From Candidatus Dojkabacteria bacterium (GTDB taxonomy: Bacteria > Patescibacteriota > Dojkabacteria > J137): a stretch of DNA of 52,687 nt. Both the position numbers and the translations under genes were made by a program. Each line of letters starts with the position of its first letter. Positions within the stretch are counted from its first letter, which is position 1. This document shows positions 5,104 to 49,320 of the stretch, piece after piece. Under the pieces are notes generated by a model. The model made no database searches. It worked only from the letters and a program-made list of their open reading frames with translations, and was not told the origin of the DNA. The stretch lies in NCBI GenBank assembly GCA_030950485.1, contig JAUZRK010000018.1, positions 1 to 52,687 on the forward strand. Direction: 5' to 3'.

Positions 5104-5203
5104 CGCAGCGTAGAGGTCGCAGATCTGCGACCATGGGGCCTGGATAACAAGCACATGGTTTTAAGATTATACATCCAGGACGAATGTTGCACCCTACGCT
5201 GAG
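5104..5203 (+). repeat. GC-rich structured intergenic repeat (family 1), copy D (diverged)
   Basis: cagcgtagaggtcgcagatctgcgaccatgg ... cctggat/atccagg hairpin ... ccctacgctg. Same outer stem and first hairpin as copies C and E. Sits between the divergent ATPase and uvrB genes. Confidence 0.7.
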
Positions 5204-5243
5204 ATCTTTCGGGTTTTGGGAGAGAATGAGTTATAATCTATTT

Positions 5244-6479
5244 ATGGATTTTAAACTACACTCGAAATACAAACCTTCTGGAGATCAGCCGCAAGCAATT
5301 GATCTAATATCTAAAGGGATAGAAGCAGGTATTGAACATCAAACAGTCGTTGGAGCTACAGGAACTGGAAAAACTTTTACAGTCGCTAATATTATAGAGA
5401 AATTTAATAGACCGACAATAATAATCTCCCACAATAAAACTCTAGCAGCTCAACTTTTTTCTGAGTTTACTGAGTTCTTTCCAGAAAATGAAGTAGCTTA
5501 TTTTGTAAGTTATTACGATTACTATCAGCCTGAAGCTTACGTTCCCAGCAGAGACTTATATATTGAAAAAGATTCTGATATAAATGAAACAATAGAAAAA
5601 TATAGAAATACAGCAACCCAAGCGCTACTTTCTAGAAGAGATGTAATCATTGTAGCCTCTGTAAGTTGTATATACGGTCTTGGAAATCCAAGCGATTATA
5701 TTGAGCTTAGTTTAAAACTTAAAGTTGGAGATATTGTAAATAGAGATAAGCTTTCCCATAAGCTAATAGATATGCAATATGAACGAAGAATACATGATTT
5801 CCCAAATGGAAGTTATAGAGTTAGAGGAGAAATTATTGATATAAATTTAACTACTGCAAATGATGAAGCAGTAAGATTAGAATTTTTTGGCGAAGAAATT
5901 GAAGCGATAAAACTAATTAATCCAATTAGTGGGGAACTAATACAGCGTGTACCTGAAATATTGATTTTCCCAGCGAAACACTACGCTACTCCCCAGGAAA
6001 AATTAAAAGGAGCTATTGAGGAAATAAGAACTGATTTAGAAAAAGAAGTTAAAGCTTTTAGTGATAAAGGGCAAGATATGGAAGCCAATAGGCTTAGACA
6101 GAGGGTGAACTTTGATTTAGAAATGTTACAGGAAACTGGTTTTACAAAAGGTATTGAAAACTATTCAAGATATTTTGATAAAAGACCTCCAGGTTCATCA
6201 GGATCTTGTTTATTAGATTATTTTCCGGATGATTATCTAATGTTTATTGACGAGTCTCATATTACAGTTCCACAAGTTGGAGGTATGTATAGCGGAGATA
6301 GGGCTAGAAAGCAAAATCTTGTTGACTACGGTTTTCGATTAAAGGCAGCTATGGATAATAGACCTCTAAAGTTTGAAGAATTCCAAAAAAGAATTAATCA
6401 GGCAGTTTATTTGTCCGCAACTCCAAAAGAATACGAACTAGAAATTAGTAAGAAATCTACAAAAAAAGCACTCTCTTAG
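5244..6479 (+). pseudogene. uvrB: Excinuclease ABC subunit B, 3'-truncated (N-terminal two thirds only)
   Basis: KPSGDQPQAI, Walker A GATGTGKTF, YYDYYQPEAY, and DESH (FIDESHITVPQ) through LSATPKEYELE. It then ends at a TAG after about 411 aa from the 5244 start. Helicase domain 2 (motifs IV-VI) and the UvrC-binding C-terminus are absent. The next ORF is unrelated. Confidence 0.85.
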
Positions 6480-15115: not shown

Positions 15116-15337
15116 TTAAAGCTGTTCTGCACCAAATCTATCACGCTCTAGCCCGTATTGTTCTCTCATATTATTTCTAGCTTCTCTTAACTCTCTCAAT
15201 CTCGGATCGTCAGCTCTGATTTGTAGATCTATGCTAGTATCAGCATTCTCTCCATTAACTAAATTTTCGCCATTACCTAATTGTCTTGCGTAAAGAGTAT
15301 CTGCTTCTGCTTTCACTTCTTCTATTTCTTGAAACAT
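15116..15337 (-). CDS. Charged segment in frame with the giant protein (between two in-frame TAA codons)
   Basis: The ATG lies 2 codons after the TAA at 15344-15346, in the same frame. The sequence (..DDPRLRELREARNNMREQYGLERDRFGAEQL) resembles the upstream protein. Confidence 0.45.
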   Translation of the reverse strand: MFQEIEEVKAEADTLYARQLGNGENLVNGENADTSIDLQIRADDPRLRELREARNNMREQYGLERDRFGAEQL

Positions 15338-15343
15338 TCTCTC

Positions 15344-18130
15344 TTATTCAGCAAGCTCCTTCTCTCTATTTCTAATGTTGGCGATAAGATCCATTATTAC
15401 CTGAGCTTCGGCATCTGGTCTTTGCTCTAATTGAGTAATTATTCTTTTTAAAGACCTTCTTTGTTGGGCTATCTGTTCTCTTTCTCTATTCATTAAATTT
15501 ATATTGTCTTCAGATGTACCTGCTGCTGGATTTGTTCCAATCATTTCTCTAGATCTATTTATTCTATCTAGTAATGCAGCTGCAGACCTCTGATATCCTT
15601 CATTACCAATCCATCTAGGATTATTTTCATTGATTCTTCTGAAGTTTTCTCTCTCTATTCTAAGTATCAACTCTCTTTCTGCCTCCATTTCCTGATTATA
15701 TTGGTTTTCCCACCTTCTCTCTCTCTTATTAAGTTCATATCCATCTTCTCTATCTTTAACGGCAGGGAATTTAGCTTGAGCGTTTTCTCTTCTTGTTCTT
15801 ACCCTTTCATATAAGTTGACTAAATCATCTGTAGTTTCAACCACTGCGTTAATATCTAGCCCCATATAATTTTGAATAGCTTGTCTATAAACTGAATTAT
15901 CTATAGCTTTCTCTTTAAGGCTTTGATTCCTCTCTCTCAACGCTCTAATATCATCGTCCTCTTTAACTGTAATTTCATTTTGATTAAATTTCATAAGTAC
16001 TGCTCTTAATCTTACTTCATATTCGCTAAGTCTTTGCTCATTTCTTTTGATGACTCTTCCTTCACCTTCTAGTTCAAGCATAGCTAACTCGTCATCCTCA
16101 ATTCTCGTAGCTTTATTATTAGCCATATCTATATTAAGATAGGCTTGGTTTAAATTATTGACAACTTCATATCTCTCGTCTATTGTAAGTCTTACATTAT
16201 TCAGATCTCCTATAAGTTCTTGAATTATATTAGCTTCTCTATCTCTTCTCCTTAACAATCTCCATACAACTCCTTTCGCAGCTTCTGCTCTATCAGCTAA
16301 AGTATTTATCATTTCTCTAGTTCTTACTCGAATTGGATTTCCTATTGGAATATTATCGTCTGTCTCCTCAATAAAGTTTTCTGCTAGTGTGTCTTGTCCT
16401 TGATCAAGTATTTTAATATCGTCAATTACCTGTCTCTGTTCTTCGGGTGCTCCTGCCATTACTGCAGTAGTATATTCCCTCTTTCGTTCTACCTGATCTC
16501 CTTTTCTATAAGTGTAGATTCTATTATAATCTTCTCTAGTTAAGGCTTCACCTGCTAATATGATGCATTGGTTTGCTTTATCCCTTATCCTGGCCCACCG
16601 CCTTATATGATTTTGAATTGTTTTATCTTCTGAATCTGCAGCTAATTCCTCAAGATTTCTTTTAGCTGCTGGAAGCCTTTTGTCTCTCGCCTCGTCTCTT
16701 GCAGCTTTCATTTCCTCTGCTTCAGCTTCGTCTATTCTTTTATTTACATCTCTCTCATTAAGATTGTTAGCTGTTTGGTTGAATCGCTCGTTTGCAGTTG
16801 CTCTTCTTTCTAAGCTTATTCTTCTCGGCGTCAGCCCTGGAGAGTCTTCTGTATCATTTAATCTATTTCTACCTTGCTCATCATTTAAAAATCTTTCTGA
16901 TCTCTCCGTATTTGCTAGCACTGCTTCAGCGTCTCTAACATTATCAATAAATTCTGCTCCATTTTCTTCTGTCGTATCCCAGTATCTAGGATTATTCTCA
17001 TCTAAATCATTAAAACCTCTTTCTTCAGTAATCTCATCTCGTCTTGTTCTTCTATAATCTCTAACATGAGGTTCATTTAGTTCTAAAATTTCGAGACTTC
17101 GTCCATAAACTTCGTTCTGAATTTCTATCTCCTCGAAAACAACAATAGGAACGCTCCTTCCAGCGTTCACTTCTTCAGTTAAAGCTACTCTTTTCTGTTG
17201 ATTATTCTCAATTTTTTTTCTTATACCCTTAGCTGCTTCTGCCCTCCCTTTAACTGTGTCTCTTTCAGCAATTTTGGCTGCTTTTTGATAGGGAGCTAAT
17301 TCATTTCTAGCTGCTTGAAGCAATCTAAGATTACCAGCTGCGTCTCTTAAATTCTTTATTCTTTCTTCTTGACCAATTGGAATATTATTATCATCCATAG
17401 TTCTAGCTGCCTTTATCTGATCTATTTGAATTTCTAATGCATTTCCATAAACATTAGCTACATCAAACAATCTGCCGACAATGTCATCTCTAGTTTCAAT
17501 AGCCTCGACTAACATTGTAAACTTAGGATGATCCGTATCCATATAGTCCCCATCTTCAACAATAGCCTCTGTCATATTTTGTAGACTGGCAAGATCATTA
17601 AATACCTTTGCTAATTGGTTTAAACCAACATCAGCATAGTCTACAATATCGTTCGGATTATCTACATCTAGCTTTGCATTTTTCCCAAGCTGGAATATTT
17701 TTATTAGTTCTTCTATTTTTTTTCCTGAGGATAACTCAAAGCTCTTAAATCTAGTAGCAAATTCCTTCGGAGATAAAAGCAAAATCTGATCTAAGACAGC
17801 AGCTTCTGGAGTTTTTCGTTTAGCGCCAGCTCTATTAATTCTTCTAAACCTCTCAGGACTTAGTATAGAAGTTTCTCGTCTTGCATCTCTAATTTCTTTT
17901 CCATGTTCCAGCTGAAGATGTTTCTCCCATAATCTTCGTTCGTTTTTAGACATAGCATCCCCTACTATTTGAAGTTGTATATGTCGGTTAGCATTAGGCT
18001 GCAATGAAGGCTTTTCAAACCTTGTACTTAGTGGATCTCCTGTTTCTTTTATTATTAACTGCTTTTCTTGAGCCTCTGCCTCTAATGCTGCTGCTATTTG
18101 AGTATCCATTGTGGTTGCTGTATCAGCCAT
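15344..18130 (-). CDS. Giant hyper-charged Arg/Glu/Asn/Asp-rich repeat protein, function unknown
   Basis: 928 aa with no TM segment. Internal repeats: DDNIPIGQEERIKNLRDAAGN vs DDNIPIGNPIRVRTREMINTLAD, and ENNPRYWDTTEENG vs ENNPRWIGNEGYQ. Long predicted helical and coiled stretches. Confidence 0.7.
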   Translation of the reverse strand: MADTATTMDTQIAAALEAEAQEKQLIIKETGDPLSTRFEKPSLQPNANRHIQLQIVGDAMSKNERRLWEKHLQLEHGKEIRDARRETSILSPERFRRINRAGAKRKTPEAAVLDQILLLSPKEFATRFKSFELSSGKKIEELIKIFQLGKNAKLDVDNPNDIVDYADVGLNQLAKVFNDLASLQNMTEAIVEDGDYMDTDHPKFTMLVEAIETRDDIVGRLFDVANVYGNALEIQIDQIKAARTMDDNNIPIGQEERIKNLRDAAGNLRLLQAARNELAPYQKAAKIAERDTVKGRAEAAKGIRKKIENNQQKRVALTEEVNAGRSVPIVVFEEIEIQNEVYGRSLEILELNEPHVRDYRRTRRDEITEERGFNDLDENNPRYWDTTEENGAEFIDNVRDAEAVLANTERSERFLNDEQGRNRLNDTEDSPGLTPRRISLERRATANERFNQTANNLNERDVNKRIDEAEAEEMKAARDEARDKRLPAAKRNLEELAADSEDKTIQNHIRRWARIRDKANQCIILAGEALTREDYNRIYTYRKGDQVERKREYTTAVMAGAPEEQRQVIDDIKILDQGQDTLAENFIEETDDNIPIGNPIRVRTREMINTLADRAEAAKGVVWRLLRRRDREANIIQELIGDLNNVRLTIDERYEVVNNLNQAYLNIDMANNKATRIEDDELAMLELEGEGRVIKRNEQRLSEYEVRLRAVLMKFNQNEITVKEDDDIRALRERNQSLKEKAIDNSVYRQAIQNYMGLDINAVVETTDDLVNLYERVRTRRENAQAKFPAVKDREDGYELNKRERRWENQYNQEMEAERELILRIERENFRRINENNPRWIGNEGYQRSAAALLDRINRSREMIGTNPAAGTSEDNINLMNREREQIAQQRRSLKRIITQLEQRPDAEAQVIMDLIANIRNREKELAE

Positions 18131-23365: not shown

Positions 23366-23866
23366 CTAAATACTTCCATCAGGAATAACATCAAGAACAT
23401 TAATACCAATAATTCTAAGTATAACCACACTGAAAACAAGTACAGCAAGTCCTGCTAAAGTCGCAAAGAATTTCTCTCTAGCCTCAACAATTTTAGCTTC
23501 TTGTCCTGATTGATACATTAATCCAGCTAAAATAAGTTGAATAAGAGCAACACCACCCATAACTCCAAAAGCAATTCTAATCATTCCAGTTACAAGACCC
23601 AGAGGTGTTACATCTAGACAACCAATAACAATCCAAATACCTCCTTGAATTATACAATTATTACAAAGCAAAAACTCTTGCTCTCCTGCTGCATCAAAAG
23701 CATTATTAGCTTTGCAAAGATCATATTTAGTACGGTCAACAAGCTCTGTACAACAACCATCATTAATATCCCCGGCAGCTTGTGGAGCTTGTATATTAGG
23801 CTGATTACCTCCACCGACTGGTTGATTTAAAACTACAAGATCTAAATTTCTTTGACCAATTATATT
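23366..23866 (-). CDS. Cys-rich VirB2/TrbC-like two-helix (pilin-like) domain, open in frame from the upstream gene's TAA
   Basis: DGCCTELVDRTKYDLCKANNAFDAAGEQEFLLCNNCIIQGGIW, then two hydrophobic helices (IRIAFGVMGGVALIQLILAGLMY / FFATLAGLAVLVFSVVILRIIG) separated by the polar loop QSGQEAKIVEAREK. The first start codon (TTG, 23671) falls after most of the Cys-rich region. The frame is open back to the TAA at 23867-23869. Ends TAG TAG. Confidence 0.55.
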   Translation of the reverse strand, partial: NIIGQRNLDLVVLNQPVGGGNQPNIQAPQAAGDINDGCCTELVDRTKYDLCKANNAFDAAGEQEFLLCNNCIIQGGIWIVIGCLDVTPLGLVTGMIRIAFGVMGGVALIQLILAGLMYQSGQEAKIVEAREKFFATLAGLAVLVFSVVILRIIGINVLDVIPDGSI

Positions 23867-24587
23867 TTATGTAGATCTATCGTAGGCTGCAATTGTTACA
23901 GTAGCCTCATCACTTATAAAACTATATGTTGCTGTAAAAGTCCCATCTGCATTTACGTCTACTATATCAAGATCGTTAAATGGGGCAACAAACATTCCTG
24001 AAATGGGATCTATTAGTCCAAATCTAATAACGTTTTGAAAAAGGCACCCTGAAATTGATACAATATAGCTGTTCTGGGCTGTAACTGTTGCGGCTCCAAA
24101 ACTTATTGTACTATTTCCTTGACAATTATCATTTACAGTAGCTGCATCTACTAAAGTAATTGTATTTTCACAAGTTTCCCTACTTCGATTAGTAGCTATA
24201 ATATTTACAGCTGAAAAGTCTACTACAGAAAATGGACTTGAATTACTAATTTCTATATTTAAGAAATCAAGCTGCTGCGCTAGAGGTATATTAACTTGAT
24301 TATTAATATCAAGATAATTTTCTAATGGTATTGGGCTTTTATTATTATCAAAATCTTCTTCATAATATTCTACTGCTGGATTAAATGGAGCGCTTAATGA
24401 TAAGGGTAATGTTAATCCATTCCCTCTTCTTACTAATTCAGCAGTAAACACTATTGGTGAACCTGCTGGTGTAATTGAACCCTCTGTTACATTAATTGAA
24501 AAAGAATTTGTTTGCGCATCTACTAAATACGAAAAATAGCGAATTAGTAATAACAATAGTTATTAAAAATATTATCTTAGACTTCAT
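23867..24587 (-). CDS. Secreted beta-rich protein; the signal peptide is in a different frame (frameshift at an A5/T5 run)
   Basis: The ATG at 24587 encodes MKSKIIFLITIVITNSLFF.., which stops after 31 codons. The main 229-aa frame begins ..YLVDAQTNSFSINV. Removing one T from the run at 24532-24536 joins them into a canonical signal peptide with a VDA/Q cleavage site. Confidence 0.6.
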
Positions 24588-32366: not shown

Positions 32367-33854
32367 GTGATGAAGAACTTAAAAGAAAAACAAAAATGGT
32401 TTCATGCAACGGGAGTTTGTGGACATGCAACTGCTGCAGTTACAAAGATGTTTAAAGATATGGGCTGGTTTACTACTGGTTCTGACATCTCTTTTAACCC
32501 GCCTGCGGTAGATATTTTAGATGATGCAGGAATTCATTACATAGAAGGATATCACTATACTCACTTAACTAAAGAATTCTGGGAAAAAGAGCTAAGTACA
32601 GAATTAAATATTAATGATAAACCTGATCTTGCGCTTATAGTTGAATCAGCAACCTCTAAGAATAATGAATATAGATATGCCAAAATTAATAAGATAGATA
32701 TGCGCCCCTACTCCCAAATATTAGGAGAGTATTTAATTAAAGATAATTCAATAGTTGTTGCAGGGTCAGCTGGTAAGACAAGCACTACAAGCTTGATAGA
32801 GTTCCTTCTAGAAAAATTAGATTTGGATCCAAGCTACATGATTGGAGGGACTATGGTTGATAATCCTGAGAGAGTAAGAAATACTGATTCAAAATGGTCA
32901 GTTATTGAAGGAGATGAATACCATAATATTAAATTAGCAAATGGAGCTAAATTTTTAGAATATAAACCCGACTATGTAATCATTACAAATATAGGGTATG
33001 AACATTTTGATATTTTTCCAACAAAGGAAAATTATATCGAGGAGTTTGGAAAATTGAAAAATGTTATTTCTAAAAAAGGATTCTTTATTGTAAAAAATAA
33101 TGATGAAAATATTGAAAAGGCCTTAGAAGGGAGTCAAAATAAAATCATTAGATATGGCAAAAAAGGAGAAGTTAGCGATTACCAATATGAAACTTCAATA
33201 ACAAAAGAAGGTTTAAGTAGTTTTAAGCTATTCAAAGATAACGAATTGAAAATTGAGGGTGAGACTAAATTGATGGGAACTTACAATATTGAAAACATGT
33301 TGGCTGCATATGCTCTATTGGATAATTTATCATTAATTGGAAAACTAGAAACACAAGAGGATGAACTAATATCATTTTTGAAAGAAAATCTACCTAAGTT
33401 TAATGGAATTGAAAAACGATTACAGATATTAAATTCTACAGAAAATTTTATAGTTATTGATGACTACGGAGTTGCCCCCTCAAGGGCTATAAATTCAATT
33501 AATACACTAAGAGAATATTACCCAGAATTTAAGGTAACTGCTATTTTTGAGCCTAATAGTGGAAGTAGAACTAAAGATAAGAAGCTTTTTATGGATTCTT
33601 ATAAAGGAGTTTTCTCTAATGTAGATGAAGTCATTATCCCTACTCTTTCAACAGCAAAAGATGAATTTGCTGGAGTTGATGAATTTATGAGTTGGTTTAA
33701 CGAACTAGGTTTTAATTCTATTCATATTGCCTCTGAAGATATACTGAACTATCTTCAAAATAAATTCAAAGATAAGAAAGAAAAACCCCTTATAGTTTTC
33801 TTTAGTGCAAATCGCCTAACTCAAGTCGCACATGATTTTTCAAACTGGATTTAA
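32367..33854 (+). CDS. Mur ligase family protein (MurC/Mpl-like)
   Basis: N-terminal Rossmann-like HATGVCGHATAAVTKMFKDMGWFTTGSDISFNPPAVDILDDAGI resembles Mpl/MurC. P-loop VAGSAGKTSTTSL. The central and C-terminal Mur ligase domains are present. Confidence 0.7.
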   Translation: MMKNLKEKQKWFHATGVCGHATAAVTKMFKDMGWFTTGSDISFNPPAVDILDDAGIHYIEGYHYTHLTKEFWEKELSTELNINDKPDLALIVESATSKNNEYRYAKINKIDMRPYSQILGEYLIKDNSIVVAGSAGKTSTTSLIEFLLEKLDLDPSYMIGGTMVDNPERVRNTDSKWSVIEGDEYHNIKLANGAKFLEYKPDYVIITNIGYEHFDIFPTKENYIEEFGKLKNVISKKGFFIVKNNDENIEKALEGSQNKIIRYGKKGEVSDYQYETSITKEGLSSFKLFKDNELKIEGETKLMGTYNIENMLAAYALLDNLSLIGKLETQEDELISFLKENLPKFNGIEKRLQILNSTENFIVIDDYGVAPSRAINSINTLREYYPEFKVTAIFEPNSGSRTKDKKLFMDSYKGVFSNVDEVIIPTLSTAKDEFAGVDEFMSWFNELGFNSIHIASEDILNYLQNKFKDKKEKPLIVFFSANRLTQVAHDFSNWI

Positions 33855-35136: not shown

Positions 35137-36099
35137 ATGAGTGGATTAATTACAGTAAAAGATATTTTAGTAGGATACGATGTTACTGCTCCGGCGGAAA
35201 AAGAGTATGAATCTAAAACTAAAAGAAGAGCTTCGCATGAGTTTCAAGCTTATGCATATAAACTTGCCCACGATCTAAACCATCTAGAGAATCTTAAAAT
35301 CTATATGCGTTTAGTAAAAATTACAGATAGATCACTACTTGAAAGAGTATATTCTTTTGTTGCTGATTCTAATTCTGATCATAAAGGACCTCTTTTTCTT
35401 TGGAAACTGAAGCAAATTAAGAAAGAGATAAAAGTAAAAAAACATAAGAAAAACTTTGATTATGATTTCGTTACAAAGAATATGCGTAGTATTAGAAATA
35501 GTCTTTATTCTCAGATTCTGAAAAACGGGAATAAACTAAATGAGAACGAGATGATTAATATTTTTACTTCTAAACTTGATATTAAATTATCAAAATTTAG
35601 AAAGTCTAAGAGGATACTTTTTTTAGGTAACTGCTCTACTCTTTTAAATGAGATGTGTGATGACCTTGGGCTAAATGTATATGGATTAGATATTTCACCA
35701 AAACTAACTGCAGCTATTAAAGAGAGTTGTAAAATTACTCCAAAATCGCACCATATTACTAAAGATTTTTTAACCAATAAATATAAAAGTGAGTACTTTG
35801 AATACGTTATGATAAGTCAACTTTGGTCATTAGTACCTATTGAAAGTGAAAATATTTACTTAAAAGAATTAAATAGAATAATTAAAAAAGGATCTTCGTT
35901 AGTTATTGAGTACAAAGAAAATTTCACTAAATGTGAACAAAAATGGAAAGAAATAATGATAGAAGGAAAAGAAGAACTATCTTTCTTAAAGAGAAACAAC
36001 TCAGCAGACCTAATCGAAAAGGTGAAGAAGGAAGGCTTTGAGTTAGAAGATTTAATCCAAACTCCTAGATACAGCTACTTAATCCTTAAGAAAAAATAA
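35137..36099 (+). CDS. Two-domain protein with a C-terminal class I SAM-dependent methyltransferase fold
   Basis: Motif I-like RILFLGNCSTLLNEMCDDLGLNVYGLDISPKL and a post-I acidic residue. Later KKGSSLVIEY. The N-terminal 150 or so aa are unassigned. Confidence 0.5.
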   Translation: MSGLITVKDILVGYDVTAPAEKEYESKTKRRASHEFQAYAYKLAHDLNHLENLKIYMRLVKITDRSLLERVYSFVADSNSDHKGPLFLWKLKQIKKEIKVKKHKKNFDYDFVTKNMRSIRNSLYSQILKNGNKLNENEMINIFTSKLDIKLSKFRKSKRILFLGNCSTLLNEMCDDLGLNVYGLDISPKLTAAIKESCKITPKSHHITKDFLTNKYKSEYFEYVMISQLWSLVPIESENIYLKELNRIIKKGSSLVIEYKENFTKCEQKWKEIMIEGKEELSFLKRNNSADLIEKVKKEGFELEDLIQTPRYSYLILKKK

Positions 36100-36159
36100 C
36101 TGCTCAATTTGTTTTGAGTGACTTTCAGTTCAATCTTCGGCTACAATACTTACATTAAA

Positions 36160-36768
36160 ATGAATTATATGAAAGAAATCGAAATTTGGTCAGAAATAGA
36201 GGCTGACATTTATCATACTAAAATTAAAGAATTTAATGAGAAGTTTGGTCAGCCAAAAACAAAGAGGAGACTATCTTTTAGATTCGGTTTTAATAGTGAT
36301 TACGTGACCAATACGAGAATTCGAATCACGAATGGTTATGCTGAGATTATGCACAAGACTGGAAGTAATCAAAAGACATTTGTACGAAATGAAACTGAAT
36401 ATGCTATTGATAATGAGCCAAATAGCATTTTAAAAATGGTGAATTTTTTTCGAAATATTCTTAAAGCTTCGGATGAAACACATTTTTATTTAATTCAATT
36501 CGAAAACTCAATTTGGGATATAGGTGATTATGAAATTAAACTTACCCATTAAATAGGAAATCAAAATATCTATAGTTTTGAAATTGAGCTACAAACTGAA
36601 GAGATGAACGAGGCTAACTTAGAGTCTTTAGCCTTAGATCTAGGACTTCCTATTAAAGATGAGATAAGAGACAATGCTTTCTGGAAGAAATTTAATGAAA
36701 GGGTTAATATTGATGTTAAAGAATGGAGTGATGAAAAAATATTAGAGATCTTATCAAAATATCTCTAA
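36160..36768 (+). CDS. CYTH (triphosphate tunnel metalloenzyme) domain protein interrupted by an in-frame TAA at 36550-36552
   Basis: N-terminal KEIEIWSEIE (ExExK-like), NTRIRITNGYAEIMHKTGS, RNETEYAID. After ..DYEIKLTH-TAA the same frame continues for 71 codons: IGNQNIYSFEIELQTEE... This supplies the C-terminal EIE strand of the CYTH tunnel. Confidence 0.6.
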
Positions 36769-37847: not shown

Positions 37848-38558
37848 ATGAGTTTAAATCATATCCAAAATCAAATTCTTTCTAAACTTACTGTTTCTGA
37901 AGAGGGGCTGAGTTACACTATGTTAATCCCTGAAAATACAGCGAAAGATCTTTTTAATTACCATTTAAAATTTTTATTAGAGAAGAAATATATTTTAAAA
38001 AGTAATGATAAAAATTATTTTCTAACTGATGTTGGAAAAAGTTATGTTCAGCGAATGGATGTTAAGGGGGATTATAAAAAATACTTTAAATTCTCTGTTT
38101 TACCTTACGTAACTAAAGAAGAAAATGGGAAGAGATTTTTAATGAGACATAAACGAATTAGGCATCCATATTTTGGAGAAATTACATCAGTATCGGGAAA
38201 AGTTAAGTGGGGAGAGAAAATTGCAGAGGCTGCTTCTAGAAAAATTGAGGAAGAAAGTGGATTGATTTGTACAAACTTTTTACACATTGGTGTGTTACGA
38301 TCAATTAGAAGATTTCCAAAAGATAAAGTTTTTCAAGACACTCTTTACCATGTTTGTATTGGTGAAAATCCGGAGGGTAACTTAAAAGAAAAGACTGAAT
38401 TTGGTGAAAATTCATGGATGAGTTTTGACGAGGCAATTAAAAATGCAAAAAATAATGTAACCAACTCTAAATATTCAATAGAGATTATAAAAAGGATCAG
38501 AGATAGAAGTTTTGAAATGTTTTATTTTGAGGAGGATATTGAATTGGAGCATTTATAG
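37848..38558 (+). CDS. Winged-helix plus NUDIX hydrolase fusion protein
   Basis: N-terminal wHTH-like region (IQNQILSKLTVSEEGLSYTML...FLLEKKYILK). Nudix box GKVKWGEKIAEAASRKIEEESGL (Gx5Ex7REUxEExGU). Confidence 0.6.
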   Translation: MSLNHIQNQILSKLTVSEEGLSYTMLIPENTAKDLFNYHLKFLLEKKYILKSNDKNYFLTDVGKSYVQRMDVKGDYKKYFKFSVLPYVTKEENGKRFLMRHKRIRHPYFGEITSVSGKVKWGEKIAEAASRKIEEESGLICTNFLHIGVLRSIRRFPKDKVFQDTLYHVCIGENPEGNLKEKTEFGENSWMSFDEAIKNAKNNVTNSKYSIEIIKRIRDRSFEMFYFEEDIELEHL

Positions 38559-39403: not shown

Positions 39404-39999
39404 TGATAGAAATAGAAAGAAGATACTTACTAAAAAAAGATGCTTTAGATTTACTTTTTAAAGAGAATGATCTAACAGGTAACCAATCAGATAGCTCTAT
39501 CAATATATATTTACTTGATAACCCTGAAGTACCATTACAAATTAGGACTCGAGGCGGGGAATGGAAATTTGCTTTGAAAAAAAAAGTAAATAATGACACT
39601 TACATAGAATCACAAGTAAAAATTGAAGAAAAAGATCTTTTAGAATTTCTACGAATAGCCTTCATATTAGAGTATAAGAAGTGCATGGTGTTAAGAAAAA
39701 ATAGAAGAACTTTTCATATTGGTGATTTAAAGTTAGATATAGATCTTTATATTGATATTGAACTATATGTATTAGAAATAGAATATACTGGAAAATCTGA
39801 GGTGCCTGAAGTAACTGAAAAAATAATTAATGGATTTGAAAAAAATAATAAATTATCTTCATATAGGGCGGAAGATTTACAGAAATTAAAAGAGTCTATA
39901 TTTGAAAATAAACTAATTAAAAGGTTTGAACTTCGAAATTTTAATGACATTGAAGAATTATACAAATTTGCTAATAGCTATAAAACTACCACTGAATAA
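39403..39999 (+). CDS. CYTH domain protein (second copy)
   Basis: Starts MIEIERRYLLKK, the hallmark EIERKFL of CYTH enzymes. Later LQIRTRGGEWKFALKKK and YVLEIEY strands. Confidence 0.65.
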   Translation: MIEIERRYLLKKDALDLLFKENDLTGNQSDSSINIYLLDNPEVPLQIRTRGGEWKFALKKKVNNDTYIESQVKIEEKDLLEFLRIAFILEYKKCMVLRKNRRTFHIGDLKLDIDLYIDIELYVLEIEYTGKSEVPEVTEKIINGFEKNNKLSSYRAEDLQKLKESIFENKLIKRFELRNFNDIEELYKFANSYKTTTE

Positions 40000-40648
40000 T
40001 CTCAATCCCCTTACTATCTAAATATTCATTAGTCTTACCAAAAGGTCTTGAACCGAAAAATCCTTTATTTGCTGAGAAAGGAGATGGATGAGGAGATTCA
40101 ATTACCATATGTTTTGTCCTATCAATAGAATTACCTTTATCTTGGGCGTACTTTCCCCAAAGTATAAATACAAGATTCTCTTTTTTATCATTTAAGACAT
40201 TTATAACTGAATCGCTAAATTCCTCCCATCCTTTTTTCTGATGAGATCCTGGAGTTCCTTTTTGTACAGTTAATGTTGAATTTAATAGTAAAACTCCTTG
40301 ATTTGCCCATCTTGTAATATCAGGGTTGGTTGAGATTTCAATACCTAGATCTAAATAAAGTTCTTTATAAATATTTTGGAGTGAGGGAGGTACTCTATTT
40401 CCTTCTTTAGCTGCAAATGCTAGTCCATTAGCTACTCCTGGAGTATGGTATGGATCTTGTCCTAAGATTACAACTTTAACTTTTTCAAATGGTGTTGCAT
40501 TAAATGCATTAAAAATCTGGGGACCTGGTGGAAATATAGTTTTAGTTTTATATTCTTCTTTAACGAAACTAATTAGTTCTTTGAAGTATTGTTTTTCAAA
40601 TTCCTCTTTAAGCTCATTTTCCCAAGATTCGTGAATGTCTATGCTCAT
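39986..40648 (-). CDS. ung: Uracil-DNA glycosylase (family 1)
   Basis: VILGQDPYHTPG, GVLLLNSTLTV and ESPHPSPFSA motifs. Ends ..IEIIQW. Overlaps the convergent CYTH gene by 14 nt. Confidence 0.92.
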   Translation of the reverse strand: MSIDIHESWENELKEEFEKQYFKELISFVKEEYKTKTIFPPGPQIFNAFNATPFEKVKVVILGQDPYHTPGVANGLAFAAKEGNRVPPSLQNIYKELYLDLGIEISTNPDITRWANQGVLLLNSTLTVQKGTPGSHQKKGWEEFSDSVINVLNDKKENLVFILWGKYAQDKGNSIDRTKHMVIESPHPSPFSANKGFFGSRPFGKTNEYLDSKGIEIIQW

Positions 40649-40715
40649 ATATAGATTGTAGCAAAAAAATGAAGGTATACGAAGTGAGGAATTAAATTTA
40701 TTAGGAAAGGGTGCA

Positions 40716-40765
40716 GGTAGTAACTAAGTAATTAGTAGTAACTTATTGTAGTTACTATAAATTAC
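40716..40765 (+). repeat. AT-rich tagtaac-word repeat (family 5), copy upstream of greA
   Basis: ggtagtaactaagtaattagtagtaacttattgtagttactataaattac is about 90% identical to 41371-41420. Related copies lie at 47731-47780 and 49278-49320. Confidence 0.8.
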
Positions 40766-40834: not shown

Positions 40835-41293
40835 ATGGCTAAATATAAAATCACAAAACAGAAACTCAAGGAATTGGAAAACGAGTTAGAAGAGCGTGTT
40901 AATAATCGTAGTGAGATTAAGAGTGAGCTAATGTATGCTGCAGAACAGGGAGATTTCGTAAGAGAGAATTTCCCTTATGATGCTGCTAAAGAAAAGTATG
41001 GTTTTAATGAAAATCGAATTGAAAGGATTAAGAATATACTAAAGGATTATGAAATTTAAAATGATCAAAGAAGTAATGATGTCGTAAGAATTGGGAGTAA
41101 GGTATTAGTACTGATTAATGATAAAAAGAGAGAGTTCCAATTGGTTTCTGATATTGAGGTTAATTCGAGGGAGGGGAAGATTTCGGTTAATTCTCCAACT
41201 GGTTTATCTTTGATTAAAAAACAAGTTAAAGATGACGGGTGGTTTGAGGTGAATGATAAGAAAATTGGATTTAGGGTTTTGGAGATAGGGTGA
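40835..41293 (+). CDS. greA: Transcription elongation factor GreA with an in-frame TAA (41057-41059) at the interdomain linker
   Basis: The N-terminal coiled coil (LKELENELEERV...AAEQGDFVRENFPYDAAKEKYGFNENRIERIKNIL) ends YEI-TAA. The same frame continues NDQRSNDVVRIGSKVLVLINDKKREFQLVSDIEVNSREGKISVNSPTGLSLIKKQVKDDGWFEV..EIG-TGA, a typical GreA C-terminal domain. With the TAA counted as one residue, total length is 152 aa. Confidence 0.85.
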
Positions 41294-41370: not shown

Positions 41371-41420
41371 AGGTAGTAACTAAGTAATTAAGTAACTTAT
41401 TGTAATTACTATGAATTACT
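41371..41420 (+). repeat. AT-rich tagtaac-word repeat (family 5), copy downstream of greA
   Basis: aggtagtaactaagtaattaagtaacttattgtaattactatgaattac is a direct repeat of 40716-40765. Confidence 0.8.
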
Positions 41421-42309: not shown

Positions 42310-43337
42310 TCATTTCCTAGTCTTCTCCTCAGCCTCTAAAACAATTCTAAACGCATCTTCTAAAGAAGTAGCTGTAAAAGAACAACCAGCAGCATATAAA
42401 TGGCCACCACCACCAGGAAAAGACATAGCAATATCTCTAACTTCTCTTTTCCCAAATTGCGATCTAAAACTTGCACCCCATTGATTTTCAACTCCACATT
42501 CCTTTTTTACTAAAAATCCCCACTCTACTCCTTCTATATTTCTAAGATAAAGATCACTAAAATAATGTTTCGCAAGACCTGCATCTGCTCTATCCTCTTC
42601 AGGTATATCAAGTAGATAAGTATAAGCGAAATTATCTTTATATCTTGTATTTTCAATAAGCTTAATTAAATACTCATTAGCTTTCTTTGTAAGTTTATAA
42701 CTATGTTTCAAAATAGATTTTGGATCAACTTTAGCGTAATCGTAAAGATCTACAAATATTTCATAAGTCTGACTTTTTGGTTTTTCAAACTGGAAATTGT
42801 TAGTGTCTGAAATAACACCTATTTGAATTAGTTCTGCTATATATTTCGAGACTATTAAATCCTCTTTAAAATACCTCTAAAGCCTGTATATATTTCTTCA
42901 GTTGCAGACGCAAGAGCTCTATCTATATGTATGTCTACTCTATGTAATAAATCATTTTGATGATGATCTATTACAAGAATATTGTTATCTTCAATCATTT
43001 TAAAATCAGCATTATCAAAACACCTGCCTAAATCTGAAGCATCGACAATTACTAATGTATCGTACTTATCTAAGAATATCTCATCAAAGCTTTCAATATA
43101 ATTACTTAGAATTTTCTTTAGATCTCTAATACTAGAGATTGGCGTTGAAGGTTTTCCTTCAAGTCGAATATCTATATCTTGAATATTATTATAATGAATA
43201 CTTGCTAGCTCTTTAAATAATAGACAGCTTGCTGCTGCGTCAATATCCGCTCCTTGATGTGAGATTACTAAAATATTAGTAGCTTTCTTTAATGATGAAT
43301 CTAATTTTTCTAATGCAACTTCTATATTATCTTGCAT
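42310..43337 (-). pseudogene. Second NrnA-like DHH/DHHA1 phosphoesterase, split by a 1-nt frameshift
   Basis: ORF 42855..43337 carries DIDAAAS and VIDHHQN and ends ..FRGILKRI*. The frame of ORF 42310..42711 (GGGGH) is open upstream to 42870 and reads ..EDLIVSKYIAELIQIGVISDTNN.., colinear with the intact paralogue (FREVLNKDLVITELQAKLIQIGIISDSAG). The switch lies at the T3A4 run 42865-42871. Confidence 0.75.
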
Positions 43338-45577: not shown

Positions 45578-46729
45578 CTACTGCTCTAGCCAATGTGTAT
45601 ATCCTTTATCGAACATATGCTGTTGTAGTTTTAGTTTTATTTCTTTACTACCTCCTTTGAAGATATCTAATAGTAGTTTTGGTAAAACTCTAGCAATCTC
45701 TATTTCTCCATTAGCAACAGTACCATCTAAACTAGTGACGGCTAAATAAGTTAAGAATTGTGCCAATACTCTCTTTAAATTTGTTAATTCTAAAACCTCT
45801 TCCCAAGTAAAATCTTTATCCGTATCAGATTCAACGAACTCCTCATCTACCTAATTCCTAGGAATTAGGATTTTCTCAAGTGCATCAATAGCAACATAGG
45901 CTGCAGGCTGATTTTGTAACGATGATAGAAATTCAACTCCAATTCTTTGTTTCGCTTTAAACTTATCTGGAAGTAAACCATTAAAGTCGATATCTACTCG
46001 TCTGATCATGTTATCAATAACAATCTGAGCTTCATCATTAGATAAGTTTCCATTAGTTCTTATAAGAGTATAAAATGTTGCAGTATTATCTTCGGTTCCC
46101 CCAGATCTGGACTCTTTACTAGTTTTTAATATACCAAAGACAATTCCGTTACCTCTAACCCTTCTTTTACTATCAACTAATTGATTATAAAGATCTTCCA
46201 TGAAGGTAAGTATTGAGACTACATCATTATCGGGTTTAAAAATCTCTTTTTCAGAAAGAGGTAAGTATGTTCTAATTCTAAATCCTTGCTTTTGGTACTG
46301 CATGTCAGTTATCGTATTTGCTTGGATTCCAATCTTTAAAGTTTGGAAAAATTCTGGTATTGTTTTAAAGTCGTTATAAAGAAAATTAGCCGCTTCTGCA
46401 ATTTCTCTAATCCCCATTTTGTGATTTTTAAAGACTGGACTAACTTCGTCTACAAACCATTCACTTGTATCAATAACTACATCTTTAATTTCTATTTGTT
46501 TATTAAGCAACCGTAACTCGGAATAGGTACATTTCAATCTACCTAACCTTAGTCTAAGATCAGCAGGAGACATATTTTGCATTTCAGCTGCTGCTACTAT
46601 TGCTCCTCGAAGTGCAGAGCCTTGAATCTCAATAACTAGTTCATTCCCTTCATGATCAAACTTGTAAAAGTCATCATTAAAAAAGTTATCGAATTCTGAA
46701 TTTTTAGCTTCTAAATAACGCTCGGACAT
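45578..46729 (-). CDS. Hypothetical protein; the 292-aa ORF continues in frame past a TAG (45851-45853) for 90 more codons
   Basis: After ..ILIPRN-TAG the same frame reads VDEEFVESDTDKDFTWEEVLELTNLKRV and runs into ORF 45578..45766 (62 aa) without interruption. No recognised motif. Confidence 0.5.
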
Positions 46730-46838
46730 ATGTTTCTATTAATCGGCAACATTATGTTATGTATATATCATTTTAAGAAGCAAAGTTTTGTTTAATTGTA
46801 CTGTAAAGTGAAATAATGTATCTATATAAATAATTCAA

Positions 46839-48603: not shown

Positions 48604-49269
48604 TTAATAAAAGTAATCTATAATATCATAAATGTTATTTACATTGGATCTCTTGTCTTCTAGGTTAAAGTCTGAGGAAACGTATTTCCAGTCTACTGGA
48701 AGATTATGTTTTAAATGATTTGAGTTTATATAAGTCAGATGTTTGGTGAAATCGTTGTGATTTCGAATGTAATGGTCGTGGAATGATTTTTGCCATTTGA
48801 ATTTTGGGTAAATATTTGGCATATTCTCTTTCAATATATCCAGTTCATTAGCAAACTTATCTATCTTTGCTTTAGGTTGATAATACCGATAATGAAGGCG
48901 ACAATGGCCATTGTCGCCTTCATTATCTCCGGTTAGATTGTAATTCTTTAAAGCTCCATCGCTGCATCCCATTGCTATATTTATATTTCTTGAAACATGT
49001 CTTTTTAAAAACTGCATAATTTTCGAATGATTCCCAATCTCATAATTAGGTTTGATTAACAAATGAAAATGATCATACATTAATGCAAAACCATATAGTT
49101 TAAACTTATGTATTTCCTTACATAAAATTAGCTCTTTCATCCAAATCTCAGCTAAATATGAATCTTCAAAGTAAGGATATCTCTTAAATGTATTTGATGT
49201 AATGAAATATATTAAGTTCTCATTATTAATTCTCTTTTGTGAATCTTTATGAAATTTGCCGAATTTCAT
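48604..49269 (-). CDS. IS200-like Y1 (HUH) transposase / REP-associated tyrosine transposase (RAYT)-like
   Basis: HUH motif YDHFHLLIKP. Late FKWQKSFHDHYIR and the catalytic-Tyr region HLTYINSNHLKH. Single gene without a tnpB partner. Carries a REP-like palindrome inside an insertion between the two motif regions. Confidence 0.75.
   Translation of the reverse strand: MKFGKFHKDSQKRINNENLIYFITSNTFKRYPYFEDSYLAEIWMKELILCKEIHKFKLYGFALMYDHFHLLIKPNYEIGNHSKIMQFLKRHVSRNINIAMGCSDGALKNYNLTGDNEGDNGHCRLHYRYYQPKAKIDKFANELDILKENMPNIYPKFKWQKSFHDHYIRNHNDFTKHLTYINSNHLKHNLPVDWKYVSSDFNLEDKRSNVNNIYDIIDYFY
48888..48927. repeat. Perfect 40-nt palindrome (REP-like hairpin, family 2) inside the RAYT coding sequence
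   Basis: gataatgaaggcgacaatgg|ccattgtcgccttcattatc. Read in frame on the minus strand it encodes DNEGDNGHCRLHY. GC-rich relative to the gene. Confidence 0.95.
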
Positions 49270-49277
49270 ATGATAAT

Positions 49278-49320
49278 ATAATAGTTACTATTAATTACTA
49301 TAAGTTACTTTTAAGTTCTA
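49278..49320. repeat. Family-5 tagtaac-word repeat (diverged copy)
   Basis: ataatagttactattaattactataagttacttttaagttc, in the divergent RAYT/49364 intergenic region. Confidence 0.5.

Follow-up and report, generated by a model that had tools for sequence, protein, structure and literature searches.

Gre factors divide their work between two domains, with catalysis residing in the coiled coil and RNA polymerase binding in the C-terminal domain, and one substitution in the latter abolished both binding and activity (PMC3132773). Beside canonical GreA stand proteins such as Gfh1 of Thermus, Rv3788 of M. tuberculosis and Rnk, small lineage-specific clades which have the Gre fold with an altered coiled-coil tip, and of these Rv3788 retains its acidic residues yet is without cleavage activity (PMC3132773). 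In-frame stop codons within otherwise intact genes are a feature of the UGA-to-Gly code of some CPR bacteria (code 25, Gracilibacteria/SR1) and of phages that recode TAG or TGA. Recoded systems have ceased to use the reassigned codon as a terminator and possess a tRNA dedicated to it, and UGA-to-Gly is the only recoding known in CPR bacteria (PMC13293708). The young pseudogenes of genomes under reduction, such as those of recently host-restricted bacteria, offer another comparison, with single lesions in many otherwise intact, mostly non-essential genes.

The stretch of DNA analysed here, hereafter the window, is a 52,687-nt contig of a Candidatus Dojkabacteria bacterium (GCA_030950485.1, JAUZRK010000018.1) that carries a greA gene interrupted by an in-frame TAA between its two domains. 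The gene occupies 40835-41293 and 152 codon positions in total, counting the TAA; its parts and the other features discussed below are collected in Table 1. The N-terminal half matches PF03449 (GreA_GreB_N) with residues 5-74 covering model positions 2-71 of 71 (E 9.4e-15), the C-terminal half matches PF01272 (GreA_GreB C-terminal domain) over model positions 2-75 of 77 (E 1.6e-14), and with the halves joined by an X at the stop the NCBIfam GreA models match end to end. In an alignment with E. coli GreA (1GRJ) the TAA takes the place of I75, which immediately precedes the C-terminal domain. When the joined sequence was modelled with AlphaFold2 on an alignment of 26 relatives, the pLDDT was 91.2; the two helices (8-38 and 46-70) are separated by a tip loop (39-45) and followed by a linker at about 71-85, so that the stop position falls past the second helix and within the linker; against solved GreA, GreB and Gfh1 structures this model gave TM scores of 0.83-0.91. 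An earlier note on this DNA had read the 74-codon frame as a complete GreA coiled coil, the TAA as lying at the linker between the domains, and the 77 codons that follow as a complete C-terminal domain ending at a TGA, for a normal total length, and it was right on each of these points. Codon usage in the downstream 77 codons is frame-specific to the same degree as in the upstream half. At ~31% G+C, 77 open codons following a stop have a probability of ~0.002 by a composition-based estimate, and the GreA C-terminal half is not there by chance. The two domains are not found here in one uninterrupted frame of ~150-160 codons; the reading frame is uninterrupted in all the full-length GreA relatives listed.

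Table 1. Positions of the interrupted greA, its surroundings and the other in-frame stops of the window.
Feature	Position	Strand	Remarks
In-frame TAA, same Glu/Arg-rich gene (second stop)	15116-15118	-	75 codons past the stop at 15344-15346
In-frame TAA	15344-15346	-	After 928 codons of a large Glu/Arg-rich protein
In-frame TAA	23867-23869	-	In the T4SS-pilin-like gene (gene C), 23366-24559
In-frame TAA	36550-36552	+	In a gene of unknown function (gene E), 36118-36768
Uracil-DNA glycosylase (UDG) superfamily gene	39986-40648	-	PF03167, E 2e-17; conserved neighbour of the greA clade
~50-nt direct repeat, upstream copy	40715-40765	+	AGTAACT units and a 7-bp inverted repeat
greA N-terminal half	40835-41056	+	74 sense codons from the ATG at 40835; complete antiparallel coiled coil (PF03449, AlphaFold2 model)
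Catalytic tip GDFVRENFPY, residues 39-48	40949-40978	+	By alignment to 1GRJ and 4WQT
In-frame TAA, codon 75, interdomain linker	41057-41059	+	Also present in NCBI JAUZSD010000017.1
greA C-terminal domain	41060-41290	+	77 sense codons in the frame of the N-terminal half (PF01272); no usable start of its own
A6 run in the greA C-terminal half	41216-41221	+	A5 in the NCBI record, giving a frameshift of its copy
TGA, normal end of greA	41291-41293	+	Matches the end of the GreA models
~50-nt direct repeat, downstream copy	41371-41419	+	Counterpart of 40715-40765
In-frame TAG	45851-45853	-	In a gene of unknown function, 45578-46735

The joined protein resembles canonical GreA (E. coli 1GRJ, T. thermophilus) in architecture, length and the Asp and Glu of the tip, as well as in the Asn and aromatic residue after these acids and the Ser-x-x-Ser-Pro of the C-terminal domain. 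It differs in having a TAA in place of a linker residue, in a D-x-x-x-E tip, and in its best score against TIGR01462 (greA) of 115.8 bits, under the 139-bit family cut-off. The word textbook, which the earlier note applied to the C-terminal domain, does not fit this protein as a whole, which falls instead in a rare clade that has one residue inserted between its catalytic acidic residues. When 1.84 billion representative proteins were scanned exhaustively with HMMER, 3262 relatives were obtained, the nearest full-length one (P0002) having 49% identity to the window GreA, and the tip motif GDF[VFY]RENFP[FY] is common to the window GreA and P0002, P0003, P0004, P0006, P0007 and P0013. Within this motif D40 and E44 are present and clade-invariant with the spacing D-F-V-R-E, one residue more than in the canonical GDLxENAEY with its D-x-x-E spacing (E. 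coli, Thermus). In a profile search of 5.8 billion proteins five of the six clade members were returned at 193-211 bits (P0002 was not returned) and the next GreA scored 132 bits. The Ser/Pro motif of the PF01272 domain is present: the clade alignment shows no variation at I116, S117, S120 and G123, and P121 hardly varies among 26 GreAs. A decayed catalytic tip was considered and rejected, the odd tip being a conserved feature of the clade. The likeness to Gfh1, Rv3788 and Rnk lies in the Gre fold, the altered tip and the small size of the lineage-specific group; unlike these, the window clade keeps its acidic residues, N45 and the aromatic residue, all of them clade-invariant.

The genomic setting of this clade is also its own. 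In the window greA is preceded by genes for a methyltransferase (35137-36099), a NUDIX protein (37848-38558) and a UDG; among clade relatives the UDG adjoins greA in two (L004 and L011), and one has the order methyltransferase, UDG, NUDIX, greA. The canonical GreA of another Dojkabacteria genome lies instead in rplT-greA-serS. The private tip motif and the conserved methyltransferase-NUDIX-UDG-greA locus show the gene to be a vertically inherited resident of this genome that belongs to a rare Gre subfamily, and by alignment and gene order we place the window GreA in a very small variant clade at a different, conserved locus. Whatever the nature of the stop, a Gre clade with a D-x-x-x-E tip merits biochemical attention. 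Close relatives of the joined GreA were found neither by a word-index homology search nor in species-representative genomes or JGI metagenomes, and these searches gave no near-identical strain from which to read the ancestral linker codon or compute a dN/dS for greA.

The column occupied by the TAA holds I, A, I, T, I and K in the six clade relatives. Examination of this column had been proposed in the earlier note, and the result, a sense codon in six of six, indicates that the TAA is not an old programmed recoding site. The combination expected of programmed readthrough, a conserved stop with a leaky context or 3' structure, was not found: the codon is UAA, not UGA, and RNA structure 3' of the in-frame stops, assessed at six sites of the window against shuffled controls, was absent (z -1.1 to +1.0). 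Set against its intact homologues greA does carry a disabling lesion, as a pseudogene would. Further lesions or relaxed constraint were not detected: neither another stop nor a frameshift occurs in the window version, and identity in the C half relative to the N half (ratio 0.63-0.77) is within the span seen in intact pairs (0.47-0.98). The damaging substitutions by which the earlier note would have recognised a pseudogene are absent, with residues at columns invariant among the other six clade members kept at 18/18 positions in the N-terminal half and 6/6 in the C-terminal half. Independent translation of the C-terminal domain was rejected, since the first in-frame ATG, GTG or TTG past the TAA is a TTG at codon 103, leaving only 50 residues. 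An ATG overlapping the stop (TAAAATG) was likewise rejected as a start for the C-terminal domain because it opens an 8-codon ORF in another frame. As the C-terminal domain is needed for polymerase binding, the 74-residue product would be expected to be inactive or nearly so.

It should be considered that the cell might use the 74-residue coiled coil as such, as an unanchored probe of the secondary channel, perhaps working beside a Gre protein that consists of the C-terminal domain only. With the stop precisely on the boundary between the domains, the N-terminal product would be a complete folding unit, and the same MAG does contain a 77-aa ORF with its own ATG and a Gre C-terminal domain only. 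We nevertheless regard this as very improbable: the C-terminal codons are fully preserved, which is unexpected if they are useless, no other stand-alone 74-aa Gre N-terminal domain occurs near the top of the 3262 relatives, the C-domain-only ORF looks like a 5'-truncated relic, and the C-terminal domain is required for polymerase binding (PMC3132773).

That ORF belongs to a second Gre locus on JAUZSD010000032.1 (L008 14674-14943, + strand), ~3.85 kb past the left end of the window. It codes for the final 12 residues of coiled-coil helix 2 followed by an entire Gre C-terminal domain (Gre profile positions 60-140, E 2e-15; PF01272 E 5.7e-7), is 37% identical to the window GreA, and has within the helix remnant the ATG that opens the 77-aa frame. 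No coiled-coil remnant was found upstream of it in any frame. The locus is either a relic of a greA truncated at its 5' end or a gene for a protein with the C-terminal domain only, and without a coiled coil it cannot supply the catalytic function. The search for a second greA copy that the earlier note called for therefore has a divided outcome: a second Gre locus does exist, lacking the coiled coil, and an intact copy was not found in the ~84 kb of this genome that were read (the window and ~30 kb of other sequence). The rare lengthened-tip Gre clade and this truncated second locus are more solid new facts than any interpretation of the stop.

The greA stop is one of several. Scanning the window for long open frames that continue in frame past a stop gave nine cases, of which three are ordinary abutting genes with a start within a few codons (GtrA/Nth, Def/unknown gene, DHH/GNAT acetyltransferase) and six are interruptions without a nearby start, in five genes, comprising five TAA, one TAG and no TGA (Table 1). 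At 15344-15346 an ATG does follow three codons downstream; this stop is nevertheless treated as an interruption, since neither the Glu/Arg-rich composition nor the codon usage changes there. The pieces downstream of all six stops show coding-type codon usage in frame, and each of the five genes carries its stop or stops and no other lesion. In 20 kb of a relative there is no comparable stop interruption, and another ~30 kb of this MAG holds at most one doubtful case. In the T4SS-pilin-like gene, homologues of 450-500 aa span the stop, and an intact paralogue in the same MAG (P0152, GCA_030949735.1) has Ser at that position. Over the 134 codons past the stop, comparison with P0152 gave a saturated pS of 0.75 and a dN of 0.11, falling to a dN of 0.04 in the last 100 codons, which indicates that the downstream part was under strong purifying selection for a long time, in effect nearly all its history. 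Two suspected paralogies were rejected: gene E shows no similarity to the neighbouring CYTH genes and has no Pfam match, and gene B has no similarity to its 960-aa neighbour. Three of the five in-frame TAA codons, that of greA included, are followed by AAT, and two lie within an identical 8-mer, TTTAAAAT.

The spectrum and placement of the six stops can be set against simple expectations. Random nonsense mutation would give 48% TAA, 22% TAG and 30% TGA, with which the observed 5/1/0 is compatible, the lack of any TGA among six being mildly unexpected (p ~0.12). Genes with a Pfam match hold ~58% of codons and only one of the six stops (p ~0.05), as would be expected if selection removes hits in essential genes. 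The genes for AlaRS, UvrC, MraY, Def, signal peptidase, NrdR, a Mur ligase and two P-type ATPases are all free of such stops.

A change of genetic code does not account for these data. The 47 long ORFs of the window end in 28 TAA, 15 TAG and 4 TGA, the called genes on another contig of the MAG (n=13) in 9, 3 and 1, and those of a relative of similar G+C in 19, 5 and 2. TAA is thus the main genuine terminator and not a sense codon, and TAA reassignment is excluded. Unlike the recoded systems described above, which this locus resembles in having in-frame stops in otherwise intact genes, TAA ends most genes here and no dedicated tRNA was seen in ~84 kb. Reading TGA as sense (codes 4 or 25) was rejected as well, given ORFs of 860-960 codons without TGA and a greA that ends at TGA, which is a genuine stop here as it is in other genes.

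A leaky stop is a subtler proposal, in which a weak ochre suppressor (a tRNA with a UUA anticodon) or high near-cognate readthrough yields some full-length GreA. All six downstream parts are intact and coding-like, the pilin-like gene with its saturated pS and low dN among them, the stops fall in the decoding range of an ochre suppressor (UAA and UAG, not UGA), and the read-through product is predicted by modelling to be a complete GreA with all key residues kept. The base after the in-frame TAA is A in 4/5 and T in 0/5, compared with T in 14/25 other TAA stops; however, such a bias towards A is expected of coding sequence, where 37% of codons begin with A. UAA is recognised by both release factors, and no natural reassignment of it is known in bacteria. 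TAA terminates ~58% of genes with no excess of tandem stops after it in the window ORFs, and a shift in stop usage as a sign of leaky TAA was rejected, the difference from the relative not being significant. No tRNA was found in the window, and the only one elsewhere in the ~84 kb is a tRNA-Cys, so a suppressor tRNA was not seen, nor was a stimulatory structure. The TAA is not conserved in relatives, and the residues aligned to in-frame stops differ (I/A/I/T/I/K in GreA, S in the pilin-like gene) at the two sites that could be compared, both of them in variable columns. A weak suppressor would explain the pristine downstream parts and the missing TGA, but it has no positive support and conflicts with current knowledge of UAA termination, and we hold a leaky greA stop to be distinctly unlikely. 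The broader form of this idea is more doubtful still: the lineage would tolerate in-frame UAA and UAG through a weak ochre-type suppressor tRNA or permissive termination, making GreA and the four other proteins at full length and reduced level. If so, it would represent an 'ambiguous intermediate' stage of ochre/amber recoding, which to our knowledge has never been documented in bacteria, and readthrough would show for the first time that a bacterium can tolerate decoding of UAA/UAG while still using them as normal terminators. No paper on in-frame stops in Patescibacteria was found in the literature.

The quality of the sequence was judged against GCA_030949735.1, a second, differently assembled and noisier record in which the 74-residue greA product is annotated on JAUZSD010000017.1; the window joins two of its contigs. 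Over 50.8 kb the two differ by 9 substitutions and 27 gap openings, and all six in-frame stops are identical in both. The substitutions (~2e-4) cluster at 10.3-10.9 kb and none touches an in-frame stop, and the indels are at homopolymers and CCTGG. Where genes discriminate, the window is usually right (the Mur ligase, a 207-aa VTT-domain gene and the greA C-terminal half are broken in the record), and at 42868 (42855-42876) the record is right: the window has one A fewer and the DHH gene, 342 aa in the record, is split into two ORFs, so one or more homopolymer errors or variants are peculiar to the window. The CCTGG indels at window positions 32868 and 40251 (L001 2030 and 9416) involve a Dcm-type motif, and indels at CCTGG are typical of methylation-dependent long-read base-calling errors. 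This indel pattern suggests that both versions are consensus sequences from a homopolymer-error-prone platform. No paper on the assembly or its sequencing method was found.

These observations bear on whether the stops could be a consensus artefact, with a sense codon (e.g., CAA, TTA or AAA) in the DNA and a systematic long-read base-calling or polishing error shared by the assemblies through a common platform or common reads. The near restriction of differences to homopolymer and CCTGG indels is the signature of error-prone long reads, each assembly has indels that break genes intact in the other, and P0001 and P0152 both come without a Logan (SRA-run) source listing. Each of the six stops can be reached by one C-to-T change at CAA or CAG, and pristine downstream sequence is exactly what an artefact predicts. 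Against this, the disagreement in substitutions is low and spares the stops, and a disagreement of ~2e-4, with 4-5% of substitutions creating a stop, predicts fewer than 0.5 nonsense codons where six are observed; random base errors as their source are excluded if the two assemblies are independent. The six stop contexts have no common motif of the methylation type, though two share TTTAAAAT, and errors should scale with gene length, yet the conserved housekeeping genes are spared. On balance we think a shared artefact unlikely. Were it the cause, public long-read MAGs could carry shared nonsense codons besides their well-known frameshifts.

The most likely reading is an ordinary one, a young nonsense allele in an imperfect MAG and not a new coding mechanism. 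To the specific statement that the greA stop is a young, real nonsense allele, one of several, we would give an even chance. A recent ochre mutation would have struck the greA linker codon in a Dojkabacteria population; the stop, present in the DNA, would end translation after the 74-residue coiled coil, and the C-terminal domain would go unmade for want of a start codon, leaving an inactive truncated product and a greA that is null or a severe hypomorph. Several dispensable or poorly conserved genes would then carry single-hit nonsense alleles, greA among them, and Gre-family function would appear to be eroding in this lineage. A young nonsense allele fits the stop spectrum, the freedom of housekeeping genes from such stops, the lack of the stop in relatives and the decay of the second Gre locus, and the presence of the stop in two differently built assemblies also speaks for it. 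Counting against it, the C-terminal half shows no relaxed constraint, and 52.7 kb would have to hold five independent, very recent events, something unusual in a streamlined CPR genome. Nonsense codons outnumber frameshifts, whereas frameshifts are usually plentiful in natural pseudogenes; the likeness to the young pseudogenes of genomes under reduction is limited in the same way, as those usually have many frameshifts and belong to genomes early in reduction, whereas here the genome is an already small CPR genome and only nonsense codons are seen. Should the stop be real and end translation, this would be an uncultured CPR bacterium caught losing a Gre factor with its second Gre locus already truncated, a case relevant to the limits of reduction of the transcription-fidelity machinery in minimal genomes. 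The framing of greA as a test case for readthrough versus gene death, put forward in the earlier note, is a fair one, since greA is the only interrupted gene of the window with a known two-domain architecture; the interpretation given there is, overall, partly supported, since a rare variant at a different locus need not be the standard, indispensable GreA of the organism. The homopolymer errors of the source assembly also bear on it, and these could not have been known from the letters alone.

Several further observations were made on these sequences. A Shine-Dalgarno-like purine-rich motif was absent from the 25 nt upstream of 15 confident starts (e.g., 27390, 29411 and 40835), where the sequence is A/T-rich only. 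The uvrB gene (5184-6479, + strand) ends after helicase motif III as a 431-aa frame with only the ResIII and UvrB interaction domains; the truncation is also in the NCBI record (411 aa), and the next ORF, of 183 aa, is unrelated. EF-P in the NCBI record (L003 1756-2323, JAUZSD010000019.1) consists of two overlapping ORFs of 73 and 119 aa, probably another frameshift error of GCA_030949735.1. In the 738-kb Dojkabacteria genome AP026679.1 (L009 9393-10705 and 11132 onward) AspRS is in three pieces and ClpB in two; a near-identical JGI contig (L010) has single AspRS and ClpB genes of 434 and 883 aa, and the splits are probable frameshift artefacts. Finally, the two copies of the direct repeat in Table 1 flank greA at a spacing of 656 nt, and a third, degenerate copy at 49288-49309 lies 19 nt upstream of an IS200-like Y1 transposase gene (48604-49269; PF01797 E 1.2e-5), with which the repeat may form a REP/RAYT-type element.
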